Positions 1 through 47,533 of a stretch of 47,533 nucleotides of DNA are shown here, in pieces. The stretch lies in the IMG/VR virus record IMGVR_UViG_2574179724_000001; one strand, 5' to 3'. Each line of letters starts with the position of its first letter. The first letter of the stretch is position 1. The DNA comes from a virus. The notes under the pieces are model-generated. The model worked only from the letters and a program-made list of their open reading frames with translations. It made no database searches and had not been told where the DNA came from. Both the position numbers and the translations under genes were made by a program.

Positions 1-95
1 TGACTTAATCTGTTGTCCTGTTGTTGTCCTCGATGCGGCTTTCTACCTATATTATAGGCATCTATAACCCCGATCACCGGTATTTTTATTAATAT
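1..95. repeat. Terminal direct repeat, left copy (attL candidate or circular-assembly overlap)
   Basis: Bases 1-95 are identical base for base to 47439-47533. The repeat runs into both window edges, so its true length is unknown. Confidence 0.9.
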
Positions 96-3122: not shown

Positions 3123-3752
3123 CTATAAATCAGTAACCACTCTAAACGCTTTTCCTAATATTCTAACTGGGTTATCTTTGCCAACAATAATTGGTGTGAA
3201 CTCTGGATTATCCGGCATTAAGAACATCGTCCCATTTGACCGCTTAATTCTCTTTAGCGTGGCTTCATTTGTTTCAGTCATCAGAACAGCTGCTATCTCA
3301 TCATCTTCTACATCTGGCTGTTGACGGATTAGAACTTTTGACCCGCTTGGGATAGTAGGTTTCATTGAATCACCTTTAGCCTTTAAGTAGAAGCATTTTC
3401 CGCTGGGTAGATAATTAACCGGTTCATCTATATATTCTTCAATATTTTCCTCAGCTAAAATTGGATCACCACAAGCAATTTCGCCTAGCAGTGGGATCTT
3501 AACCGTTTTAGTAATTGGTATGACATTATCAGGTTTTCTCTCAATTAAATCAGATTTTTCAACGTTAAAATAATCTGCCATTTTTTCAATACTACCAATC
3601 CTTGGATAGGAATTTCCGTTTATCCAATCAGTTAAGGTTGTATATTTAACGTTTAAATCAGCAGCCATTTTTGATCTCTCGGTTCCGTGCTGTTTCATAA
3701 ACCTTTTAATATTATCAGATAGAACCCTTTTATTTCCTAAATCGCTCATCAT
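3123..3752 (-). CDS. cI-type repressor (XRE HTH plus S24 LexA-like autopeptidase)
   Basis: N-terminal HTH (MAADLNVKYTTLTDWINGNSYP). C-terminal GDSM...K Ser-Lys dyad (KGDSMKPTI, LKRIK). The ORF opens at GTG 3758, but the ATG at 3752 follows the GAGGTG RBS. Confidence 0.9.
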   Translation of the reverse strand: MMSDLGNKRVLSDNIKRFMKQHGTERSKMAADLNVKYTTLTDWINGNSYPRIGSIEKMADYFNVEKSDLIERKPDNVIPITKTVKIPLLGEIACGDPILAEENIEEYIDEPVNYLPSGKCFYLKAKGDSMKPTIPSGSKVLIRQQPDVEDDEIAAVLMTETNEATLKRIKRSNGTMFLMPDNPEFTPIIVGKDNPVRILGKAFRVVTDL

Positions 3753-3774
3753 TTTCACCTCACTTTCTACATAT

Positions 3775-3802
3775 ATTATACGGCTGTTCCGTAAAAAGTA
3801 AA
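3775..3802 (-). promoter_or_regulatory. Leftward maintenance-type promoter for the repressor, with an operator in the spacer
   Basis: On the minus strand: TTTACT, 16 nt, TATAAT. The palindrome TACGGCTGTTCCGTA (3779-3793) sits in the spacer. Confidence 0.5.
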
Positions 3803-3844
3803 TAGAAAATCAACAAAAAAATATGTTTTTTTCGTATTTTGTTA

Positions 3845-3873
3845 TTGACTTTACGATTTAATCGTATTAATAT
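3845..3873 (+). promoter_or_regulatory. Rightward early promoter with an operator in the spacer
   Basis: TTGACT (3845-3850), 17 nt, TAATAT (3868-3873). The palindrome TACGATTTAATCGTA (3852-3866) fills the spacer. Confidence 0.65.
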
Positions 3874-3902
3874 TGAAAATGCAAAGAGGAGGTGGAAAAC
3901 AA

Positions 3903-4145
3903 ATGGAAATTCAAAAACATTTCAAAGTAACTTTAAGAGGCCTACGTGCAACTTATGGGCTAAGCCAAAAAGAAGCGGCTGAAGCTATTGGTGTGGGGCT
4001 TGAAACGTGGAGAAACTATGAACGTGGGATCACTTCACCTGATGAAAAGAAGCTCAGAGTGATTGAAAAAGTATTCAATATAAGTTACGACGATATTATT
4101 TTTTGTCGTCAATTACGATTAAATCGTAGCAAAGTCACAGAATAG
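3903..4145 (+). CDS. Cro-like XRE-family HTH regulator
   Basis: LRATYGLSQKEAAEAIGVGLETWRNYERG HTH. GAGGAGG RBS lies 9 nt before ATG 3903 (the ORF track opens at TTG 3873). Divergent from cI. Confidence 0.85.
   Translation: MEIQKHFKVTLRGLRATYGLSQKEAAEAIGVGLETWRNYERGITSPDEKKLRVIEKVFNISYDDIIFCRQLRLNRSKVTE
4114..4128. promoter_or_regulatory. Third operator-type palindrome, inside the cro 3' end
   Basis: TACGATTAAATCGTA has the same TACG-N7-CGTA architecture as 3779-3793 and 3852-3866. Confidence 0.45.
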
Positions 4146-4157
4146 GAGGAACAAAAT

Positions 4158-4784
4158 ATGAAAACAGAAGTTTGGAATGGGCATCAAATAAGATTCATTG
4201 AATTGAACAATGAATGGTTTGCTATCGGCAAAGATGTTACTGACGCTTTGGAATATATCAATAGCAGAGATGCAATCAAAGCACATGTTGATGAAGAAGA
4301 TAAGAATACCGTAGCGATTCACGACGGTATTAAAGGAAATCCAAATAGAGTAGTAATTTCTGAGTTTGGAATTTATGATTTGATTTTTAATTCAAAAATG
4401 CCACAAGCAAAACAATTTAAACGCTGGGTCTTCAACGTAATCAAAACATTGCGTACTCAATCAGGACTAGAGGGCTTTGAGATTTTCCGAACACTTGATA
4501 AGGATCATCAACGAAAAATGATGAATCAACTTAATCAATCATTATCACATCCAGTGCGACTAAATTTTATGAAAGCAAACACGATTACAAATAAAGCAGT
4601 ATCAACTAAGTTTGGCTTTAAGAAAATGATTAAAAAGGGTGAAATGACACCACAGATGCTAGCTGAACGTGAGCATGTTTTAGAGGATGTAGTAAATTTG
4701 ATGGCTTTACGAGATAAGTACGGATTGAATATTTCAATCAGTCAGACAATTTACAACTCGGATAAGCAACTAGTTACGGAATAA
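4158..4784 (+). CDS. Phage antirepressor (BRO-N domain family)
   Basis: N-terminal WNGHQIRF...EWFAIGKDVTDALEY...AIKAHVDEEDK...VISEFGIYDLIFNSKMPQAKQFKRWV matches the Bro-N pattern. AGGAGG RBS. Confidence 0.8.
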   Translation: MKTEVWNGHQIRFIELNNEWFAIGKDVTDALEYINSRDAIKAHVDEEDKNTVAIHDGIKGNPNRVVISEFGIYDLIFNSKMPQAKQFKRWVFNVIKTLRTQSGLEGFEIFRTLDKDHQRKMMNQLNQSLSHPVRLNFMKANTITNKAVSTKFGFKKMIKKGEMTPQMLAEREHVLEDVVNLMALRDKYGLNISISQTIYNSDKQLVTE

Positions 4785-4799
4785 GGAAGAGTGATACAA

Positions 4800-4928
4800 A
4801 TGGAAAAGTTGGATAAAGCAATCAGTGATTTTATAGTCGACGTTTTGTCTGAAAAAGAAACAAAAACAAGCCCTGAAATGGTGGCAGCCATTGCAGAACT
4901 TGTAGAAAGTGTTAACAAATATGGTTAG
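4800..4928 (+). CDS. Small hypothetical protein (42 aa)
   Basis: ATG preceded by an AAGGAAGAG RBS. MEKLDKAISDFIVDVLSEKETKTSPEMVAAIAELVESVNKYG. Below the ORF-track length cutoff. Confidence 0.45.
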   Translation: MEKLDKAISDFIVDVLSEKETKTSPEMVAAIAELVESVNKYG

Positions 4929-5094
4929 AACTTCTTTCGAATTGTTTGTTGTGACTTTGTTAGTAGTTGGGAATTTTTATTTAGCATTCTCTTTTACAAA
5001 AATGTTTAGCAGAGATAAAGATATTAGTTATTATCTTTTAATGTCAACTTTAGCCATTTTTATAATTGGAACATTAATAGAGTTCTTCTACTAA
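4921..5094 (+). CDS. Small two-helix membrane protein (hypothetical)
   Basis: The 57-aa ORF is mostly hydrophobic (two predicted TM helices). The start is uncertain (GTG 4909 or ATG 4921). Confidence 0.3.
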   Translation: MVRTSFELFVVTLLVVGNFYLAFSFTKMFSRDKDISYYLLMSTLAIFIIGTLIEFFY

Positions 5095-6165: not shown

Positions 6166-6486
6166 ATGCCCACATTGATAAATGAAAATGCAATTGCCGA
6201 ACTTGTAGAACAGCAAGTCAACAAACTTACTGATGAGCGACTACTAACTAGGCTTGATGGCATAACGTGGTCAACTGACCAATTCCGCAAAGCTTGCTGT
6301 GGTGGCAAAGACAGCGGCTGGGTTACGACTTTCATTTTAGACAAGTTTCTTGATGAGATTGATTACTACCACGGTGGCTGGCTGATTCGTGGTGGACGAG
6401 GAAAGGCAAATATTATTTTCGCCAAGCCTGCTTGCGAGTGGATGGAGAAAAATCGTAACCGAATTGATTGGGAGGCGAAAATATGA
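6166..6486 (+). CDS. DUF771-like phage protein (possible excisionase-type DNA-binding protein)
   Basis: AAAGGGGA RBS before ATG 6166. The WSTDQFRKACCG...TFILDKFLDEIDYYHGGWLIRGG...IFAKPACEWMEKN pattern resembles DUF771 of lactic-acid-bacterial phages. Confidence 0.5.
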   Translation: MPTLINENAIAELVEQQVNKLTDERLLTRLDGITWSTDQFRKACCGGKDSGWVTTFILDKFLDEIDYYHGGWLIRGGRGKANIIFAKPACEWMEKNRNRIDWEAKI

Positions 6487-6563
6487 CGTTTGCAGACTGG
6501 TTTGTAACGCTGATTATCGTCTATTTCATCGGCTGTTATGTGGGGAGGCATGAGCGAAAATGA

Positions 6564-6779
6564 TTGGGTTTCTATGGTTTCACACACTATTTTTTCCCAG
6601 CGATTGTTTTTATAGGCGGCTTAATCGTTAGTTTGTGGTTGGTCGGAAAGGTGGCAGATGCAATTGAACGTATTGGGTCAAGAATTGCTAGGTGTTGGCT
6701 GATTAAAAAAATAGAAGCCTACGGCAATGGGCTTCATTACAAATATTTCTTACAAAAATTATACCACAGAAAGGATTAA
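6564..6779 (+). CDS. Small membrane protein (hypothetical)
   Basis: 71-aa ORF with one TM helix (FFPAIVFIGGLIVSLWLVG). TTG start. A 26-aa hydrophobic ORF (6483-6563) precedes it. Confidence 0.3.
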   Translation: MGFYGFTHYFFPAIVFIGGLIVSLWLVGKVADAIERIGSRIARCWLIKKIEAYGNGLHYKYFLQKLYHRKD

Positions 6780-6783
6780 AAGC

Positions 6784-6945
6784 ATGAAAAAACAAATTAC
6801 AGTAGGAACGGTTTTAAGAATGAAAACAACTGAAGAGTTAAAAACATTGAACACTATATTGGCTTTAGAAGCAGCAAGCCTTAAAGATCATCATCACTTA
6901 GAACAATTTGCTAAAAATGTAAGCTTTTTAGAAGAAGGTGAGTGA
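6784..6945 (+). CDS. Small hypothetical protein (53 aa)
   Basis: ATG after an AGGA RBS. The stop overlaps the start of the next gene (GTGA). Confidence 0.45.
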   Translation: MKKQITVGTVLRMKTTEELKTLNTILALEAASLKDHHHLEQFAKNVSFLEEGE

Positions 6946-8249
6946 AATTGTCAGTCAAAATTAATAAATTAGAAATCGAAAATGTTAAACGCGTTAAGGC
7001 AGTCAAAATTGAGCCTAGCCAAAATGGATTAACTATCGTAGGCGGAAATAATAACCAAGGGAAGTCAAGCGTACTTGATGCAATTGCTTGGGCATTGGGT
7101 GGAAATAAGTACAAACCGTCAAAGGCAGAACGCGAAGGGTCAGCAATCCCACCTAGATTACACATTGTGATGAATAACGGCTTAATCGTTGAACGTACTG
7201 GTAAGAATTCAAGCTTAAAAGTAATTGATCCGAATGGTGAAAAGGGTGGCCAACAATTACTAAACGATTTTGTTGAAGAGTTAGCTATCAACTTGCCAAA
7301 GTTTATGGAGTCAACGAATAAAGAAAAAGCAAAAATATTGCTGCGAATAATCGGTGTTGGTGACCAGTTGTATCAACTAGAACAGAAAGAACAGGAAATC
7401 TATAATCAACGCCACACTATTGGACAGATAGCTGACCAAAAAGGTAAGTACGCTAAAGAACAGCCTTATTTTCCAGACGCGCCAAAGCAGTTAGTTGATG
7501 TTAGCGAGTTAATCAAGCAGCAACAAACAATTTTGGCTAAGAATGGTGAAAATGCTCGAAAACGCCAGCAGGTTAAAGAAATTCAAGGACAATTTGAACT
7601 TGAAAATCAGCAAATTAAACAGCTTCAGGAACAACTAGCACAGCTACAAGCCAAACATGCTAAGACAGAAGCAGATTTACAAGTAGCTCAAAAAGATACA
7701 TCAATTCTGCATGATGAATCGACAGCAGAACTTGAAGCAAACTTATCTCATATTGACGAAATCAACCGCAAAGTTCGGGCTAATCTCGATAAAGATAAAG
7801 CCGAAGATGATGCAAAACAGTACGCTAATCAGTACGACAAACTAACCGAACAAATTAATCAAGTTAGAAAAGATAAAGCTGCATTGTTAAATAACGCAAA
7901 GCTACCTTTACCGGGGTTGTCCGTTGAAGATGGGGAACTAACTTACAACGGTCAAAAATGGGACAACATGAGCGGTTCGGACCAGCTAAAAGTGTCAACT
8001 GCGATTGTTCGTCAGCTGAAACCAGATTGCGGATTCATACTCTTAGATAAATTAGAACAGATGGACATGGTTACATTAACAGAATTTGGAAAGTGGCTTG
8101 AACAGGAAGGCCTTCAAGCAATTGCTACAAGAGTTTCGACTGGCAGAGAGTGTTCAATAATTATTGATGATGGTTATGTTAAAAGGCAAGAACAAACAAT
8201 TAAGCAGCCTAAACCAGAATCATCATGGGCTGGGAAAGGAGCATTTTAA
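6942..8249 (+). CDS. SMC/Rad50-like AAA ATPase (AAA_23 type) of the recombination/replication module
   Basis: N-terminal Walker A GGNNNQGKSSVLDAI, a long Q/E/K coiled coil, and a C-terminal ILLDKLEQMD Walker B-like motif. Confidence 0.75.
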   Translation: MKLSVKINKLEIENVKRVKAVKIEPSQNGLTIVGGNNNQGKSSVLDAIAWALGGNKYKPSKAEREGSAIPPRLHIVMNNGLIVERTGKNSSLKVIDPNGEKGGQQLLNDFVEELAINLPKFMESTNKEKAKILLRIIGVGDQLYQLEQKEQEIYNQRHTIGQIADQKGKYAKEQPYFPDAPKQLVDVSELIKQQQTILAKNGENARKRQQVKEIQGQFELENQQIKQLQEQLAQLQAKHAKTEADLQVAQKDTSILHDESTAELEANLSHIDEINRKVRANLDKDKAEDDAKQYANQYDKLTEQINQVRKDKAALLNNAKLPLPGLSVEDGELTYNGQKWDNMSGSDQLKVSTAIVRQLKPDCGFILLDKLEQMDMVTLTEFGKWLEQEGLQAIATRVSTGRECSIIIDDGYVKRQEQTIKQPKPESSWAGKGAF

Positions 8250-17819: not shown

Positions 17820-18029
17820 CTAAACATCCTCTTTTTGCATTTTTAAATCATCATAGAATTTTTGAAGTTTCAAAGCTGTCTTAATGGTCATATTTTCGAG
17901 TTTAGTATCGCCAGTCCTGTAGCGATTAATCATAGCACGAGTTAACCCCGTTTCCTCCGCTATAGCGTATGCCGAGATATCCGAACTTAACAGCTTTTCA
18001 ATTTTGCTTAAATCAATTTTCTTTTCCAT
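17820..18029 (-). CDS. Small HTH protein
   Basis: 69 aa. AIAEETGLTRAMINRYRTG helix-turn-helix. Overlaps the upstream gene by 17 nt. Leftward strand. Confidence 0.65.
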   Translation of the reverse strand: MEKKIDLSKIEKLLSSDISAYAIAEETGLTRAMINRYRTGDTKLENMTIKTALKLQKFYDDLKMQKEDV

Positions 18030-18894
18030 TGTTTAGCGGATCGCCCTTCCATTTTTCAAGTGTATTTCCCCATAATTCTTCTTGAAGTCTATCACGAGCT
18101 TCAATGGCATCGCTTAACTTTGCGTATTTTCCACCATAGTTTATTTTTTTCTTAAAGGCGACTAGCACTAAATATCTGCCATCATTTTGCACGTAGATAT
18201 TTCGATAACCAGAAGTATTTGCTTTTGTAGGGTTATTTCCCAACATAGCAGGGCTTGTTCCACCATATTTTGTATTTATTTTTCTAATTTTTGCTTGGCC
18301 TTGTTTAACATTATTTTTAGCTTTTTTCATTTTCAAATGGCCACAAGATTTTAGATTGCCTCCTTTTAAAGCTGATGCTGTTGCGTAGTATATTTTGCCA
18401 CAGGAACACTGTGTTTTATACAGTTTGCTCCCGTTGCATGTTATCCCTGTATATCTAATAACTGTTAATTCATTGAACTTCTCTCCAGGTTTTATTTCTC
18501 GACTTATATGCTCATACTGCCATTTATCCGTGGTGCCTTCAATAATGGCTTTGGCTAAACTCTCTTTAGCCTTGATTGCTTCTTCTAAAGTAGAGTATGC
18601 TCCACCAGCAAAATGTTTTCCATTTTCTGAAAGCCTAACGTAAAATTTATTAGAATTTTTATTAAATGAAATTCCTCTGACTCCAGTTAAAGAATTGCTT
18701 TGAGCCTTACGACTACCGGGCCTGACAGGAATAATTGGGTGGGCTTTAATCATTTCTTCAAGGCATTTTTCAGCTTCTACTCTGGTTTTGAAGCCTCTTT
18801 TTGAAATGGTTTTTCCCATAATTTTCAGTCTTGCGCCGTACGAAAATTCACCAGTAGCTAGTTTAAATTCTTGTATGCTTCCTCTTTTCTTCAT
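18013..18894 (-). CDS. Multi-AP2-domain DNA-binding protein with a central Cys4-type zinc ribbon
   Basis: Three AP2/arm-like units: GFKTRVEAEKCLEEM, GVRGISFNKNSNKFYVRL...YSTLEEAIKAKE and SGYRNIYVQNDGRYLVLV...KLSDAIEARDRL. Also LTVI...CSCGKIYYATASALKGGNLKSCGH. No HNH motif. Confidence 0.65.
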   Translation of the reverse strand: MKKRGSIQEFKLATGEFSYGARLKIMGKTISKRGFKTRVEAEKCLEEMIKAHPIIPVRPGSRKAQSNSLTGVRGISFNKNSNKFYVRLSENGKHFAGGAYSTLEEAIKAKESLAKAIIEGTTDKWQYEHISREIKPGEKFNELTVIRYTGITCNGSKLYKTQCSCGKIYYATASALKGGNLKSCGHLKMKKAKNNVKQGQAKIRKINTKYGGTSPAMLGNNPTKANTSGYRNIYVQNDGRYLVLVAFKKKINYGGKYAKLSDAIEARDRLQEELWGNTLEKWKGDPLNNGKEN

Positions 18895-18906
18895 AATTAA
18901 TTTTCC

Positions 18907-19320
18907 TTAGAGAAGGCCTTCTGAAATTTCAGCGCCATCTGCTAATTCTTCTTGATATTCTTCTTCTGAAAGTGAAATTAATTCGACAAAGATAAACCCT
19001 TTGCCTTCTTGGTCCTCAGGCTCTGCCCAATCAATTTTGAAGTGAGTACCTTTTTTTACAATATATTCATCTTCACCTTTGATAGCGTCTAACTTATCGA
19101 CTTCCTCTTTGTTAGAGTAGTCGACTTTGTGAGCTTCAACAGCGTTCATAATCGAGAAAACTACTTGACCGCCCAGATTGTTTTCAGGGCGAAATGCTTC
19201 TTCATTTTCGCCACCTGCGAAACTTGCGTCATGATCAAGAGTCATCAGCTGACCCTCTTGATAGTCTGAATAATATTCGGGCTGCAACGCTATGATTCTT
19301 GCTAAGTTTTCGTATTTCAT
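18907..19320 (-). CDS. Highly acidic small protein, unknown function
   Basis: 137 aa with 33 D/E versus 11 K/R by hand count. AGGAGG RBS. First gene of the leftward island. Confidence 0.65.
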   Translation of the reverse strand: MKYENLARIIALQPEYYSDYQEGQLMTLDHDASFAGGENEEAFRPENNLGGQVVFSIMNAVEAHKVDYSNKEEVDKLDAIKGEDEYIVKKGTHFKIDWAEPEDQEGKGFIFVELISLSEEEYQEELADGAEISEGLL

Positions 19321-42462: not shown

Positions 42463-42899
42463 TGACAAAAACAATTAAATTACAGAACGCAGACTTGGTA
42501 CCAGTAGGCAACTTCTTAGGAAAATTAAAACTTAAAGGGAAAGCAAGCCGTGGACGTACTAAGCTAATTAAGCTACTGGAAGATAAAAATAAAGAATACA
42601 ACGAGGACCGCGAGGAAGTTCGTGATCCTTATTTTGAACACGATGATAAAGGCAAACGTGTAACAAAAGATAATGCTTATGTGCTGAAAGACCCAACGAA
42701 AGGGGCTGATTTAAATAAGGAATTAGTTGATTTAGCGAAAGAAGATGCGGTAATTGAGTTCACGGAATATTCAGATAAGTTTCGGGCACTGTATGACGCG
42801 CTTAATGCTTATTCATATGAGTTAGCTGATGCAGATGCGACATTGTACGATTTATTGATGGACGAACTGGAAAACAATTTTAAAAAGGAGAATGATTAA
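42462..42899 (+). CDS. Hypothetical protein (tail/lysis junction)
   Basis: 145 aa. TAATG overlap with the fibre gene. Charged and helical. Confidence 0.6.
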   Translation: MTKTIKLQNADLVPVGNFLGKLKLKGKASRGRTKLIKLLEDKNKEYNEDREEVRDPYFEHDDKGKRVTKDNAYVLKDPTKGADLNKELVDLAKEDAVIEFTEYSDKFRALYDALNAYSYELADADATLYDLLMDELENNFKKEND

Positions 42900-42901
42900 T
42901 T

Positions 42902-43132
42902 ATGACAATTTCACTAAATAGATTAGCATACCAATTTGATAATGATGGTAACACATCAAGTGTTTCAGTTGGCTTGAATGGTTCAGATAGTGGCGATGCG
43001 GTTAGTGCTACTTTACAGATTATTTCTAGTGATTTAGCAACAGGCAAGACTTTCGATGACATGACCAAAGCTGATTTTGAGACACTTGCTAAAGCTAAAT
43101 TGGCTAACTTAACAGCAGTTAAGAGTGCTTAA
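42902..43132 (+). CDS. Hypothetical protein
   Basis: 76 aa. AAGGAG RBS. Confidence 0.55.
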   Translation: MTISLNRLAYQFDNDGNTSSVSVGLNGSDSGDAVSATLQIISSDLATGKTFDDMTKADFETLAKAKLANLTAVKSA

Positions 43133-43147
43133 TAAGGGGCTGGTCGT

Positions 43148-43408
43148 ATGGATGATAAAGGGAAAGACGATGTAAACGTAATCGAGCTGCTAATGGATAT
43201 ACAACAGCGATTAGCGAAAGTCGAAGTTAATACGTCAGGTGTTAATGATACTGCTCGAAAGACAGAGGAAACATATCAGCTTAGCAAGCAAAACGAGCAG
43301 GACATCAAAGATTTAAAATCGAATAGCCAATGGTGGTCACGCACAATGTGGGTGGCTATTTTATTGCCATTAGCTTTATTTGTCGTAGAAAACTTTTTCA
43401 TGAAATAG
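43148..43408 (+). CDS. XhlA-like membrane protein (lysis-associated)
   Basis: N-terminal coiled region and a C-terminal TM helix (WWSRTMWVAILLPLALFVV), as in XhlA-family proteins upstream of holins. Confidence 0.6.
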   Translation: MDDKGKDDVNVIELLMDIQQRLAKVEVNTSGVNDTARKTEETYQLSKQNEQDIKDLKSNSQWWSRTMWVAILLPLALFVVENFFMK

Positions 43409-43419
43409 GAGGATTATCA

Positions 43420-43917
43420 ATGAACGTACAAAATATTTCAGATTTAATTGTCGCGGTTGCAGCCGCAGCTGTGCCGGTAGTATTTGCTTATATCACTAAA
43501 TTTTTAAAGGATAACAAACAAGCGATGTCAATTTTAGACGCAGTAGCTCCGCTTGCTAAAGATGCTGTTGTCGCAGCCGAAAAATTAGGCGTGGATAAAT
43601 ATATTGATGGAGCTGTTAAAAAGTCAAAAGCTGTTGAATATGTAATGAACGGGTTAACAGCACTTGGTTTTGATAAAGTGGATTTAACCATTATCGAAAA
43701 TGCTATCGAAAAAGCCTATGCAGAAGCTAAGGCTACATTGAAAACTGTATATCCGCAGAAAACTGAGGAGCAGCAAGAAAAAGCTGATGAAGCTAATCAA
43801 GCAAAAGCACTTGCTGATGCTAAAGCCAAGAAATTGGAACTTGCAAAATCAGACTTAGAAGCTAAGCAAAAAGCTTTAGCCGATGCACAAAAAGCTGTCG
43901 ATGAGTTGTCTAAATAA
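43420..43917 (+). CDS. Holin (LL-H type), N-terminal TM helix plus a long charged tail
   Basis: TAGGAGG RBS before ATG 43420 (the ORF track opens at 43330). MNVQNISDLIVAVAAAAVPVVFAYI then an A/K/E-rich coiled tail. Directly upstream of the lysin. Confidence 0.7.
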   Translation: MNVQNISDLIVAVAAAAVPVVFAYITKFLKDNKQAMSILDAVAPLAKDAVVAAEKLGVDKYIDGAVKKSKAVEYVMNGLTALGFDKVDLTIIENAIEKAYAEAKATLKTVYPQKTEEQQEKADEANQAKALADAKAKKLELAKSDLEAKQKALADAQKAVDELSK

Positions 43918-43929
43918 GGGGGCTTAAGA

Positions 43930-45162
43930 TTGAAAAAGAAAGTCTTACTTGGAGTGCTGGCGTTTGCCAGTGCTTTTTGTTTTGTAGTCAGTGTAAGTGC
44001 TGACCGTGATCAAGGCGTGGATTTGTCAAAGTATCAAGGCTCAACGGCTGTATTTGGCCAAGCTAGTGACAAGTTTGCCATCTGCCAGATCGGTGGCTAC
44101 TATGATGGTATATTTTACCCACAATCAACTTATCAATCACAAGTAGCGTCAACGATTGCGCAAGGCAAACGGGCACATACTTACATTTTTAGTGAGTTCA
44201 GTACCCGAGCACAAGCGGATCAGATGCTAGATTACTACTTGCCAAAAGTGCAGACACCTAAAAATTCGATTGTTGCTTTAGATGTAGAATCTGGTACGCC
44301 TAACACTGATGCTGTTATGTATGCCTTAGTTAAAGTCAAGCAAGCTGGATATACTCCAGTTTTATACGGTTATCTTAATTTCTTAAAAGCACATTTAGAT
44401 TTATCTACGATTGCAGACAGTTATCCTCTGTGGTTAGCAGAATATCCAGACTATCAGGTACGCACTACGCCAGACTATAATTATTTTCCGAGCTATAAAA
44501 ATATTCATATGTTTCAGTTTACCAGCACATACAAAGCTGGTGGATTGGACGGAAATGTGGACTTGCTAGGAATTACTAAAAACGGCTATAATGGAACAAC
44601 TACCAATAGTGTGGGAGCCACAACCGTTAAGACTACAACTACCACGGCTGCAATCAAGCAAGGCCAGACAGCTAATGCTACATCTAAAAGTGATATTGCT
44701 GTCGGGTACACGGTTAAGGTTAATTTTTCTGCATCTAAATGGTCAAATGATTCAAATATTCCAAGCTGGGTAAAAGGTAAGAGTTATAAAGCTCAGCAAG
44801 TTTCAGGTAGTAAAGTTTTACTTGCTGGCATTTTAAGCTGGATTGATAAATCTAATGTTGAGATTTTACAAACGGCTAGGCAAGCAACTTCAACCAGCAC
44901 TAGCTCATCTAGTTTGCCAAGTGGAGTACACGCGCAAAGCGGTACTTTCACACCTAACCAGAGTCTGATGGTATGGCATGGTGCAGGGTATAATGCAACA
45001 TATCAATATTACTATCGTGGTGAAAGCATCAAGTACGTTGGGTATATCGACAACTGGAATGCAGGGTACAGATATATCGTGTACAAGGGTGCATCTGGCA
45101 TCTGGTGCTACGTTGCCGACAGACATTTAAGCCCTAATTACATGCTAGGATATGCTAAATAA
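43930..45162 (+). CDS. Endolysin: Sec signal peptide, GH25 muramidase, two SH3b-like wall-binding repeats
   Basis: MKKKVLLGVLAFASAFCFVVSVSA signal-like N-terminus. The GVDLSKYQG start of the GH25 domain. Thr-rich linker. C-terminal SH3-like repeats. TTG start after AAGGGGG. Confidence 0.85.
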   Translation: MKKKVLLGVLAFASAFCFVVSVSADRDQGVDLSKYQGSTAVFGQASDKFAICQIGGYYDGIFYPQSTYQSQVASTIAQGKRAHTYIFSEFSTRAQADQMLDYYLPKVQTPKNSIVALDVESGTPNTDAVMYALVKVKQAGYTPVLYGYLNFLKAHLDLSTIADSYPLWLAEYPDYQVRTTPDYNYFPSYKNIHMFQFTSTYKAGGLDGNVDLLGITKNGYNGTTTNSVGATTVKTTTTTAAIKQGQTANATSKSDIAVGYTVKVNFSASKWSNDSNIPSWVKGKSYKAQQVSGSKVLLAGILSWIDKSNVEILQTARQATSTSTSSSSLPSGVHAQSGTFTPNQSLMVWHGAGYNATYQYYYRGESIKYVGYIDNWNAGYRYIVYKGASGIWCYVADRHLSPNYMLGYAK

Positions 45163-45167
45163 AAATC

Positions 45168-45181
45168 GGGGCTTTTGCCCC
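45168..45181. terminator. GC hairpin after the endolysin gene
   Basis: GGGGC-TTTT-GCCCC. The T-run (GATTTTTATTT) lies on the minus-strand side and an A-run on the plus side. It may act bidirectionally. Confidence 0.45.
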
Positions 45182-45272
45182 ATACATAATAAAATTATTG
45201 TGATATTATATACTTAATGACATATAATAATAGAAATAATAAGCTTTCATTTTTTGAAAATGATGTGTTCTG

Positions 45273-45300
45273 TTGACATTTAAATTATATATTGTATATT
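45273..45300 (+). promoter_or_regulatory. Sigma70-type promoter driving the structured RNA
   Basis: TTGACA (45273-78), 16 nt, TATATT (45295-300). Confidence 0.6.
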
Positions 45301-45306
45301 AAGTAT

Positions 45307-45500
45307 AGGGTTGTGGTAATTCGGAATGTACTCGCGCAAAGGCTATGAGAATAGCTAACCGTCGTAAGCTGCCTGCATGGTAGTCGAGCTTCCGTTGAAC
45401 CCTTAATACATATCTCAAGTCTATCGCGTAATTTATTATGTGATAGACTATTTTTGTATATTAAAAGCCTATCTCTTAATTGAGGTAGGTTTATTTTTTT
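45307..45500 (+). ncRNA. Candidate structured non-coding RNA of about 195 nt (family not recognised)
   Basis: GC-rich block 45308-45402 (49/95 G+C by hand count) in AT-rich ORF-free DNA. Nested helices P1-P3 plus two hairpins (one with a GAGA loop). Ends in tandem terminator hairpins. Confidence 0.5.
45465..45500 (+). terminator. Rho-independent terminator (twin A)
   Basis: AAGCCTATCTC-TTAATT-GAGGTAGGTTT followed by ATTTTTTT. 11-bp stem including G-T wobbles. Confidence 0.8.
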
Positions 45501-45507
45501 GAAATGG

Positions 45508-45535
45508 TTGATTTAAATTATTATATTTGTATAAT
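45508..45535 (+). promoter_or_regulatory. Sigma70-type promoter of the two-gene cargo operon
   Basis: TTGATT (45508-13), 16 nt, TATAAT (45530-35). Confidence 0.6.
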
Positions 45536-45662
45536 GTATGAAAAAGGATTGTTACCTATGGCTTTAATAATTGTCTACATATAGAATTACCGTATTTTTT
45601 TTACTATATATAGTATTTGTAAGATTATATAAAACCAAGATCTTTATGAATCGAGTGATATT

Positions 45663-46106
45663 GTGCATTATTTTAATGAGAAATATTTTCCTTCAAAAAA
45701 GCAACTGTGTTGCCCTCCTGAAGATAGTCATAGTTTTAATGGAACTCTGTATAGATTCACTCAAAGTTCACCCATTTCGACTATGAAAGATTGGGAAGCA
45801 TATGTGACTAATGAAATAAAGAGAAAGCGTTGGGTTGATAGCTGTGATTACAGCACTCTTTGCAAAAGTTCAGGAGTCTCGTGTTATCAGACTGAGGCCG
45901 AAGCTAAAAATGCATTCGAAGCAATGAAAAAACGTTCACCTGCATTCAGAAAAAAATTCAATGGAATTTTTTCCGTGGATATTAGTCCTGTGGATGGAGT
46001 TCTAGCGGAAACATCCAATCCAAAGAATACCTATAGGCACTTTACTTTTTGGATAAACAACAAATCGAAGATTACTACCAATAATTATACCTGCATCAAA
46101 GAATGA
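45663..46106 (+). CDS. Cys-rich protein of unknown function (cargo gene 1)
   Basis: 147-aa ORF. GTG start with a weak GAGTGA RBS (start uncertain). CCPPEDSHSFNGTLYRF, CDYSTLCKSSGVSC and a C-terminal YRHFTFW. AT-rich. Confidence 0.65.
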   Translation: MHYFNEKYFPSKKQLCCPPEDSHSFNGTLYRFTQSSPISTMKDWEAYVTNEIKRKRWVDSCDYSTLCKSSGVSCYQTEAEAKNAFEAMKKRSPAFRKKFNGIFSVDISPVDGVLAETSNPKNTYRHFTFWINNKSKITTNNYTCIKE

Positions 46107-46116
46107 GGAAATAAAA

Positions 46117-47265
46117 ATGAATAAGTTAAGTAACTCTCCAATAAAAAAATTTAAAATTTATCATGTCTATGATTATTATGATGAACCTATACTTTATTCT
46201 TTTTTAAATGAAACAGGAGCATTATTTTTGGCTAACTTTGTAGATTATGATGAAGATAGCACTGAAACATGGTTGTATTTACCAGTATCTTTTCAAGAAC
46301 TTAAAAAAGTTGAATCTGGCGAATGTTCTTTGAGAACACTTATTTTGAGTGGTGAATCTTCTTTTGCTTATATTGAGAAACAAAAAGATGAAATTTCTAA
46401 CTTTTTTATTGAATCTACTAGCAATATAGATTCAAGTTATTTACCTGAAGAAAATGTATATATTGAATATCAGACAGATCAACTTATTGAAAGTAATTCT
46501 ACTGATAATAAAATTACGCCCGATAATAGGTACGCAATTGATATTTCATTCACCTCAGATAAAAATCAGTATGAGATGTCTGCTTCTCTTTTATCTGGAG
46601 TCCTAGTTAACTTACAAAGAATAATGACCGCACTTACTTTGGACAAAAAAGCAAAGCGTATATACAAGATTCATAATGAATTAAATATTGTTGGAACATT
46701 TGCAGGTTCATTTGGAATTAGATTACTATCTGATAAAGTATCTTCACTATTAAATGAAAATGAGTCAGAACCTTATAGAAAGATAGTGAGTCTATTTAAA
46801 ATGACTAACCAAAAGGAAATAGACGTAGAAAAGATAGTTAAGGACTATGGTTGGTTAACGTTAAAACATTTTTTAAGTTTATCTAAAAATCTTTTAGATT
46901 TAAAAGGAGGGAAAATTGAATCAGGTATTCCCCTACCGGGTGCGGGAGTGGAAAGAATTAATACTACTTTTGAATCAAATAAAGTAAATAATTTTATGAG
47001 TTTGTTAAGTAAATCAGCTGTTAAAGTAAGCAGAGAAACGGAGACTTTACAAGGGACTCTCACTAAATATGATTTTGTAAAACATCAATTTTCATTTACA
47101 TCGGATAAAGATAAGGCATTTAATGGTATTGTTAAAACAGAAAAAAGTACCTACACTATACCAGCAGTTGGAAAAGCAGTACTTTCTGTGGAGATAACTG
47201 AGGATAGATTAAATGAAACCACTCAAAAAAAAATAAGCTTAGTATCTTGGACCCCTCAAAAATAG
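46117..47265 (+). CDS. Protein of unknown function (cargo gene 2)
   Basis: 382-aa ORF 10 nt after gene 1. GAGGAAA RBS. N-terminal YDYYDEPILYSF...TWLYLPVSFQELKKVESGECSL domain. The remainder is unassignable. Confidence 0.8.
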   Translation: MNKLSNSPIKKFKIYHVYDYYDEPILYSFLNETGALFLANFVDYDEDSTETWLYLPVSFQELKKVESGECSLRTLILSGESSFAYIEKQKDEISNFFIESTSNIDSSYLPEENVYIEYQTDQLIESNSTDNKITPDNRYAIDISFTSDKNQYEMSASLLSGVLVNLQRIMTALTLDKKAKRIYKIHNELNIVGTFAGSFGIRLLSDKVSSLLNENESEPYRKIVSLFKMTNQKEIDVEKIVKDYGWLTLKHFLSLSKNLLDLKGGKIESGIPLPGAGVERINTTFESNKVNNFMSLLSKSAVKVSRETETLQGTLTKYDFVKHQFSFTSDKDKAFNGIVKTEKSTYTIPAVGKAVLSVEITEDRLNETTQKKISLVSWTPQK

Positions 47266-47314
47266 AATTATGCCCGATATAGTATAAGATGTTTAATCCT
47301 ATTTTGAAACATTA

Positions 47315-47350
47315 AAGCCTCACTCTTAATTGAGTGGGGCTTATTTTTTT
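47315..47350 (+). terminator. Rho-independent terminator (twin B)
   Basis: AAGCCTCACTC-TTAATT-GAGTGGGGCTT followed by ATTTTTTT. Same loop, tail and stem ends as 45465-45500. Confidence 0.8.
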
Positions 47351-47438
47351 ACGCGCATTCTACTGTGATTTCAGATTTTAGACGTGTAGTTGTACGTTGG
47401 TTTGCAAAATAGAACGCATAAAAATAAGCCAGCTAGGC

Positions 47439-47533
47439 TGACTTAATCTGTTGTCCTGTTGTTGTCCTCGATGCGGCTTTCTACCTATATTATAGGCATC
47501 TATAACCCCGATCACCGGTATTTTTATTAATAT
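47439..47533. repeat. Terminal direct repeat, right copy (attR candidate or circular-assembly overlap)
   Basis: Identical to 1-95. Ends at the window edge. Confidence 0.9.

Follow-up and report, generated by a model that had tools for sequence, protein, structure and literature searches.

A two-gene cassette of probable PD-T4-10 type between the endolysin and attR of a Liquorilactobacillus nagelii prophage

Introduction

What is encoded by the two adjacent genes that lie between the endolysin and the right attachment site of a Lactobacillaceae prophage? We addressed this question for IMG/VR virus record IMGVR_UViG_2574179724_000001, a stretch of 47,533 nucleotides (nt; the whole stretch is hereafter called the window), in which the two genes, here named A and B, form a compact cassette at 45501-47350. 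An initial annotation, made from the sequence alone, had called the pair unassignable and the best candidate for an undescribed system of a family that could not be placed, and had proposed a role in defence, abortive infection or exclusion. Here we report that both proteins match the models of a known defence system, PD-T4-10, and we consider it likely that the cassette is a horizontally acquired, two-protein, toxin-antitoxin-like abortive-infection system of the PD-T4-10 family, carried by a prophage of L. nagelii.

PD-T4-10, consisting of PD-T4-10A and PD-T4-10B, was obtained by functional selection from E. coli ECOR65 (Vassallo et al. 2022, Nat Microbiol, PMC9519451). In that study PD-T4-10B was toxic, arresting growth or killing the cell, and its toxicity was neutralised in full by PD-T4-10A, the product of the gene just before it on a common transcript. 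No deletion of PD-T4-10A could be obtained, whereas deletion of PD-T4-10B abolished T4 resistance; protection was shown in E. coli against T-even phages, and its mode was abortive infection (PMC9519451). Neither protein had a predicted function, the HHpred tables of the paper contained no informative matches for either (RCO36089.1, RCO36088.1), and DUF6575 was listed among the domains newly linked to defence (PMC9519451). Among the papers mentioning PD-T4-10 in the literature that we searched, none gives a mechanism.

Results

Both proteins match the PD-T4-10 models

The two same-strand open reading frames (ORFs) of 147 and 382 amino acids (aa), 10 nt apart and with GAGGAAA before the second, were recovered at the coordinates of the initial annotation and are subdivided as follows.

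45663-46106, + strand: gene A, GTG start, 147 aa, PD-T4-10_A homologue, predicted antitoxin or neutraliser
46105-46111, + strand: Shine-Dalgarno sequence GAGGAAA of gene B, overlapping the stop codon of A
46117-47265, + strand: gene B, ATG start, 382 aa, beginning 10 nt after A
46117-46536, + strand: N-terminal domain of B (aa 1 to ~140), DUF6575, the part common to E. coli PD-T4-10_B
46537-47265, + strand: C-terminal module of B (aa ~141-382), PDC-M63B type

When the PADLOC hidden Markov models (HMMs) were searched, as the initial annotation had suggested, both proteins matched PD-T4-10. Protein A matched PD-T4-10_A (PDLC04023) with E 9.8e-12, aligning aa 14-139 with positions 22-139 of the 148-position profile (~80% of the profile). 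This was its sole PADLOC match, the M63A model of the PDC-M63 system discussed below not being matched, and its homologue in locus L003 matched the same profile at E 2.3e-10. Protein B matched PD-T4-10_B (PDLC04024) with E 3.6e-12 through aa 3-119, covering only profile positions 8-123 of 353, and Pfam placed DUF6575 (PF20215) at aa 10-141 (E 4e-17, 62.8 bits versus a gathering cutoff of 26.6). We assign the cassette to the PD-T4-10 family, as a distant relative, because A and B independently match its two HMMs.

The window locus has the PD-T4-10 gene order, the A model and DUF6575. Like PD-T4-10, it is a two-gene operon encoding a small protein first and a protein of ~370-400 aa second, the first homologous nearly along its full length and the second through its N-terminal domain; both systems are carried on mobile DNA, and neither has a protein with a predicted biochemical function. 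The two genes of the window are separated by 10 nt whereas those of PD-T4-10 overlap, and they reside in a prophage of Gram-positive Lactobacillaceae, those of PD-T4-10 in E. coli. A further difference, as judged from profile models, concerns the C-terminal ~240 aa of B, which have no match to the PD-T4-10_B profile and match PDC-M63B instead: the N-terminal domain of B is a PD-T4-10_B member, but the C-terminal two-thirds are not detectably so.

The NCBI annotation of A (P0008) is 107 aa long and begins at the internal Met41, leaving out 40 conserved N-terminal residues (window 45663-45782). We favour the long GTG-start ORF, which the initial annotation had also used, because homologues conserve residues 2-40, with C17-P18-P19 invariant and R31 nearly so. 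In the family alignment C17, P18, P19, C67, S73, T117, H126 and W130 are invariant. The earlier description of A as Cys-rich is right in that it has six Cys, but C17 and C67 are the only ones invariant in the family; from the invariant Cys/His pattern, A might be a small metal-stabilised protein. A had no match in Pfam or in the PDB, no Pfam family recurred among 10 A-family members at E <= 10, and the A-family profile retrieved only spurious designed-protein matches from the PDB sequences. Motifs of three kinds (ADP-ribosyltransferase R-S-E, papain-like Cys-His-Asn triad, 2H HxTx) were tried for A and dropped, the residues that they require being unconserved across the family. PHROGs and NCBIfam gave nothing meaningful for A or B.

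A and B are linked across distant taxa

HMMs built from the alignments of A and B were run on the six-frame ORFs of every fetched locus. An A-family ORF was found directly upstream of full-length B, on the same strand, in 13/13 independent loci, which bears out the co-occurrence that the initial annotation had proposed to look for. These loci are the following.

The window
Lactobacillus sp. W8172, chromosomal islet
Lactobacillus sp. ESL0701, prophage, directly behind a GH25 lysin as in the window
An IMG/VR prophage
A metagenomic contig, beside an integrase fragment
Two short contigs with 4-nt overlaps, one beside an IS1595 transposase
A GC-rich genome in which the A ORF had previously been uncalled
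Plasmids of Oscillatoria nigro-viridis, Arthrobacter, Rhodococcus and Bacillus mycoides
The S. aureus prophage phiPV83

The spacing of the two genes in the relatives checked ranged from a 4-nt overlap (L016, L017) to a gap of 21 nt, and a profile search of genome contigs with the B alignment returned 3 loci. The plasmid copies come from four phyla. Copies other than that of the window lay in prophage cargo slots (L008, L018 and phiPV83) or adjoined integrase, insertion sequence or recombinase genes. A third conserved gene of the system was considered and rejected, the 311-aa neighbours in L003 and L009 being unrelated.

The pair in phiPV83 is orf62 (139 aa) and orf63 (390 aa), both annotated as hypothetical (L014, NC_002486.1, 4550-6155; record positions 42704-44309). 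The orf62 product aligned with A at 96% probability in hhalign, and the orf63 product matched the B-family HMM with E 1e-28. The two genes come after the endolysin and the lukM/lukF-PV leukocidin genes and before attP.

Gene B joins DUF6575 to a separate C-terminal module

Close homologues of B were few (7 in a word-indexed search, all Lactobacillaceae-like). An exhaustive profile search returned 3965 cluster representatives (50%-identity clusters) at E <= 1e-3, 478 of them at E <= 1e-30, and nearly all of the best 150 of the 3965 matches were ~390-400 aa long and aligned end to end, so that the full-length architecture of B is that of a large family. With these 478 relatives, the PADLOC matches of both proteins and the presence of DUF6575 in Pfam, the initial view of an unassignable pair and an undescribed system has to be abandoned.

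PADLOC models were then found to match two different parts of the B-family proteins. Among 123 B-family representatives, 105 matched PD-T4-10_B, the best at only 1.4e-17, which is N-domain-level strength, and ~97 also matched PDC-M63B. In relatives scanned individually, the first ~120-144 residues match PD-T4-10_B and everything from residue ~140 onward matches PDC-M63B (E 1e-8 to 1e-14; positions ~56-310 in a profile of ~309-326), and the C-parts taken in isolation never match PD-T4-10_B. The C-part of the window's own B, which is too divergent, gave no direct hmmscan match to PDC-M63B. When four genuine M63B-type proteins were compared with the seven closest B relatives, the window included, the hhalign match spanned B residues 152-329 with a probability of 97% (E 1.2e-10), and M63B-type proteins scored E 1e-32 to 1e-38 against positions ~118-381 of the B-family HMM. 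By these profile comparisons the C-module of B is evidently homologous to PDC-M63B. The initial annotation had found no nameable motif in the ~270 aa after the N-terminal domain, which holds for Pfam; the region can nonetheless be placed, in the PDC-M63B family.

PDC-M63 is an unvalidated phage-defence candidate of PADLOC in which M63A is a DUF6932 nucleotidyltransferase-like protein and M63B a protein of ~310-325 aa. We examined genuine PDC-M63 loci from Lacrimispora, a Bacillota metagenome-assembled genome and four IMG/VR contigs. In these loci the DUF6932 gene overlaps the start of M63B, the N-terminus of M63B is a coiled coil in place of DUF6575, and prophage lysis or terminase genes adjoin. 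The window locus resembles them in the homology of aa ~140-380 of B to M63B and in its small-then-large order of two genes, which in PDC-M63 overlap, on prophage or viral contigs. It differs in the N-terminus of B, which is DUF6575 rather than a coiled coil, and in the upstream partner, which belongs to the A family, DUF6932 being unrelated to A. The window locus is not a PDC-M63 system because the DUF6932 gene is missing upstream. Conversely, the A gene was present in none of the 6 M63-type loci. Because the M63B-type loci carry the upstream DUF6932 gene in place of A, A tracks DUF6575 and not the C-module. B is thus a chimera of a DUF6575 N-domain and a separate, portable C-module, and in another protein (P0014) DUF6575 is joined to a different C-terminus, DUF7226.

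In the four IMG/VR loci of PDC-M63 type (L019-L022; for example L021 3163-4588 and L022 3436-4960), the DUF6932 and M63B pair lies directly upstream of the genes for the small and large terminase subunits. This terminase-upstream site is a second phage cargo position for the M63B-type module.

The AlphaFold2 model of B (predicted local distance difference test score, pLDDT, 81) falls into three regions. The N-domain (aa ~12-100) is rich in beta-strands and contains two helices, a linker of low confidence follows at aa 120-134, and the third region is a middle part of mixed alpha/beta structure that leads into a five-stranded beta-barrel at aa ~302-380, modelled very confidently (pLDDT > 90). 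Across the 123 family members D22, P24, W52, S58 and E80 of the N-domain are nearly invariant and R61 is present in most, while the invariants of the C-module are limited to Q167 and S198, with no acidic or His catalytic set. Both lie in the middle part, S198 within a GSFG motif; a GxSxG nucleophile elbow was considered here and rejected, the motif being G-S-F-G at a predicted beta-turn.

Foldseek, also proposed in the initial annotation, was only partly informative. No PDB match of the B model was significant, and only a consistent series of weak matches to oligonucleotide/oligosaccharide-binding (OB) folds was retrieved over ~75-96 residues (E 0.02-0.3, probability ~0.9), comprising the single-stranded-DNA-binding protein Rim1, IF1, cold-shock domains and RPA; the model of A could not be used. 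Against BFVD, the B model matched other uncharacterised phage DUF6575 proteins, one of them from Leptospira phage LE1. The B-family profile gave only spurious designed-protein matches among the PDB sequences. The BFVD matches at ranks 4-6 are uncharacterised phage proteins, 113-184 aa long, of which ~90-125 residues superpose on part of the B model, with template modelling scores of up to 0.70 when normalised by target length. From the models, these small proteins may be stand-alone DUF6575-like domains.

The cassette occupies a variable slot between lysin and attR

The host record is Liquorilactobacillus nagelii CP049304.1, and the window is one complete integrated prophage, bounded by an exact 95-bp direct repeat (window 1-95 and 47439-47533) representing attL and attR. 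The GH25 endolysin gene lies at 43930-45162 (Pfam Glyco_hydro_25) and is followed by 2.3 kb up to attR. The A-B cassette is situated between the two and ends 89 nt inward of attR. Its G+C content (45501-47350) is 30.1%, compared with 38.1 +/- 2.5% in the rest of the prophage, where 0/434 windows of 1850 nt were as low, in agreement with the AT-richness first noticed from a few sampled lines.

As the initial annotation had recommended, the same slot was compared across related prophages, and other toxin-antitoxin-like pairs, or nothing, were found in it. Six IMG/VR prophages (L023-L028) have lysins 86-89% identical to that of the window. The lysin terminator was matched in several of them (L023, L028), and the att-proximal block was matched in 5/6, starting at window position ~47314, which is exactly the second terminator of the cassette; L026 ends 3 nt after the lysin. 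A and B were present in none of the six. The contents of the slot were as follows.

L023-L028 as a group (single loci follow): nothing (L027, 57 nt); ~580 nt in which no clear gene was seen; a pair of 101 and 195 aa; a pair of 185 and 72 aa on the opposite strand
L023, 6334-7697: SocA/Panacea antitoxin-like protein and a 301-aa membrane protein
L028, 6189-7078: two-gene cassette with no family match
L029 (lysin 68% identical), 6298-7070: two-gene cassette with no family match
L090 (more distant contig), 3307-5077: IrrE/M78 peptidase (RmrA-like) and DUF4411

In the last of these contigs the lysin match is confined to the C-terminal 91 residues (82% identity). The comparison is direct evidence for cassette swapping in the lysin-attR slot. 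The A-B cassette is an autonomous unit of atypical G+C content, lies between conserved phage blocks and is absent from the relatives with 86-89% identical lysins; it is a moron that the prophage acquired by horizontal transfer, and the initial description of an autonomous two-gene accessory cassette of foreign composition in a variable slot was accurate. In the phage collection, neither megablast nor blastn found a match to the cassette or to its upstream intergenic region.

Boundaries and transcription signals

The cassette is framed by the following elements.

45465-45500, + strand: upstream terminator hairpin and T-run, 11-bp stem, first of the twin terminators and left boundary of the cassette
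45508-45535, + strand: sigma-70-like promoter candidate of the A-B operon, TTGATT-16-TATAAT, 10/12 matches
45603-45614, no strand: perfect 12-nt palindrome ACTATATATAGT in the ~120-nt leader, read from the sequence
47315-47350, + strand: intrinsic terminator closing the operon (hairpin 47315-47342 and T-run), 11-bp stem including 6 GC pairs, the second twin terminator
47439-47533, no strand: attR copy of the 95-bp att repeat, exact 95-nt identity with attL at 1-95, context outside the system

Terminator-like sites are enriched in this region (5 versus 0.9 +/- 1.0 expected), and the strong terminator first noted at 47315-47350 is real. The twin segments 45452-45500 and 47302-47350 are 78% identical over 49 nt at a distance of 1850 nt, their stem differences are compensatory, and they bracket exactly 1850 bp. 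Because the twins bracket the cassette and homology with the related prophages resumes at the second copy, they suggest that the cassette was inserted at, or duplicated, a terminator. The promoter site is present as first described, but its function is no more than plausible because the AT-rich stretch has no excess of sites of this kind (20 versus 13.6 +/- 4.1 in shuffles); an alternative promoter-like site overlaps it at 45499-45527. The palindrome ACTATATATAGT could, speculatively, be an operator; AT-rich palindromes are frequent by chance.

Between the lysin and the cassette, a candidate structured small RNA was seen at 45273-45500. Its promoter-like site (TTGACA-16-TATATT, 45273-45300, 11/12 matches) is the best in the region, and the site is followed by a ~100-nt closed multi-stem fold (45306-45405) with 49% G+C in surroundings of 30-33% and a fold z-score of -5.3, and then by terminator hairpins at 45418-45449 and 45465-45492. 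Rfam gave nothing significant in 43000-47533 or 45280-45510, and an exact 21-mer search did not find the small RNA in IMG/VR. It occurs neither in any other A-B locus nor in the prophages closest to the window, and on these two grounds was rejected as a component of the system.

Elsewhere in the window, two minus-strand ORFs (293 and 137 aa) at 18013-19320 interrupt the otherwise plus-strand genes that separate the early region from the terminase region. The segment shows a local dip in GC and AT skew, and neither protein had a match among PDB sequences. This pair may be a second moron.

Discussion

Proposed mode of action

Homology, linkage and the slot comparison make anti-phage or abortive-infection defence the most likely role of the cassette, as the initial annotation had favoured before the PD-T4-10 HMM matches, the 13/13 linkage and the slot swapping were available. 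For A and DUF6575, it appears reasonably safe to carry over toxin-antitoxin behaviour and abortive infection from E. coli PD-T4-10 by homology. In an uninfected lysogen, A and B would be balanced, A being produced from the same transcript just upstream and neutralising B. Infection by another phage would upset this balance, either because A is lost or titrated or through direct sensing, and the freed B would halt the cell before the cycle of the invader completes, so that the clonal lysogen population and the resident prophage would be protected. Within this scheme we prefer to regard A and DUF6575 as the regulatory, neutralising interface and the C-module as the effector, because of the operon order and the constant N-domain with variable C-termini. 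The C-module, which ends in a small and possibly OB-like beta-barrel, might work by attaching to nucleic acid or to a cellular complex, and not as an enzyme; such non-enzymatic killing is a lead from the structural model and not a result.

The predicted organization is reminiscent of type II toxin-antitoxin prophage morons, in which a small upstream neutraliser precedes a larger toxic protein. Tight spacing suggestive of translational coupling, a candidate promoter and a terminator of its own, atypical G+C content and a variable cargo slot are further likenesses. Unlike type II modules, A has no recognisable DNA-binding antitoxin fold and has invariant Cys, Cys and His residues, and B is far larger than the classical toxins, with three structural regions and no known toxin domain.

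Several points weigh against assigning the cassette to PD-T4-10-like abortive infection. Experimental support is confined to the E. coli pair and includes no Gram-positive member. By profile comparison, detectable homology with the E. coli toxin profile extends over only ~1/3 of B, and if the E. coli toxicity resides in the unrelated C-terminus, toxicity can be deduced for B only indirectly. The sole published test of the same C-module was a deletion of PDC-M63AB in E. coli NILS69, which had no effect against 10 phages; because PDC-M63AB was without phenotype in this one test, the shared module is not independently validated. B has no conserved catalytic constellation in its alignment, the OB-fold matches of its model are weak and not attributable to a particular domain, and the AlphaFold2 model of A, built from 3 sequences, is unusable (pLDDT 48) and its Foldseek output meaningless. 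The promoter is a consensus match in AT-rich DNA, and lysogen expression is presumed. Finally, a crude mirror-tree test gave A a partial r of 0.20 with the N-domain and 0.59 with the C-module; there is no sign here of specific A-DUF6575 co-evolution, and the test is uninformative or mildly unfavourable.

A more far-reaching version, which we put forward tentatively and with rather less than even confidence, is that A and DUF6575 form a portable unit of 'neutraliser and docking domain' fused to at least three unrelated C-modules, namely the E. coli PD-T4-10B type, the PDC-M63B type and the DUF7226 of P0014. The M63B-type module would then represent a new toxic effector that is not an enzyme, is possibly OB-like and able to bind nucleic acid, and is common to two otherwise unrelated defence operons.

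Alternative explanations

The roles within B might be reversed, DUF6575 being toxic and directly neutralised by A while the portable C-module acts as a sensor or regulatory domain for a phage cue, either protein or nucleic acid. A module of this kind would be reused by PD-T4-10-like and PDC-M63 systems with different effectors, comparable to the fused sensors of CapRel and Avs. DUF6575 is the sole part of B common to the E. coli protein shown to be toxic, and it holds the best-conserved polar residues (D22, S58, E80 and, in most members, R61), as against Q167 and S198 alone in the C-module; a possibly OB-like barrel would also suit ligand sensing. The DUF6932 partner of M63B has a nucleotidyltransferase fold and is potentially a toxin itself, as nucleotidyltransferase-type proteins can be, for example AbiEii and MenT. 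However, minimal nucleotidyltransferases encoded upstream are usually antitoxins, as in MNT-HEPN pairs, the C-module is in the second, larger gene of both operon types, which is the usual toxin position, and a constant N-domain with variable C-termini is the pattern of polymorphic toxins. We regard the reversed arrangement as unlikely, although it deserves to be kept in view.

The cassette might alternatively be an addiction module, stabilising its prophage or plasmid by post-segregational killing and having no meaningful anti-phage activity in L. nagelii. The occurrence of A-B on plasmids of four phyla, in prophages and in integrative elements is the classical habitat of such modules, PD-T4-10 behaves as a bona fide toxin-antitoxin pair, and PDC-M63AB was without a defence phenotype. 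The position of the cassette at the lysin-att junction, among interchangeable toxin-antitoxin-like and defence-like cassettes, is nevertheless typical of prophage defence morons, and stabilisation and defence are compatible rather than mutually exclusive. Addiction without defence seems distinctly improbable to us.

Non-defence lysogenic conversion affecting host physiology or virulence, or a decaying, non-functional passenger, might be suggested by the leukocidin genes lukM/lukF-PV beside the phiPV83 pair and by the failure to find a catalytic motif or known fold, but we give this very little credence in view of two intact ORFs, full-length conservation across very distant taxa, strict linkage, matches of A and B to the HMMs of a validated defence system and the absence of any signal peptide or secretion-related Pfam domain in A or B.

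Implications

If A and DUF6575 are indeed a portable unit of this kind and the M63B-type module an effector, the cassette would tie the validated PD-T4-10 system to the unvalidated PDC-M63 candidate. PD-T4-10 had previously been studied in E. coli only, and the window locus extends the family to temperate phages of Gram-positive bacteria, reaching the leukocidin-converting S. aureus phage phiPV83, whose orf62 and orf63 have been 'hypothetical' since 2000, and plasmids of cyanobacteria, actinobacteria and bacilli. The strict coupling of A with DUF6575 and the domain chimera between PD-T4-10 and PDC-M63 provide testable handles on which part of the system is toxic and which part senses. For the Lactobacillaceae, the locus is a further example of the lysin-att slot of their prophages serving as a swap site for defence cassettes of the toxin-antitoxin type.

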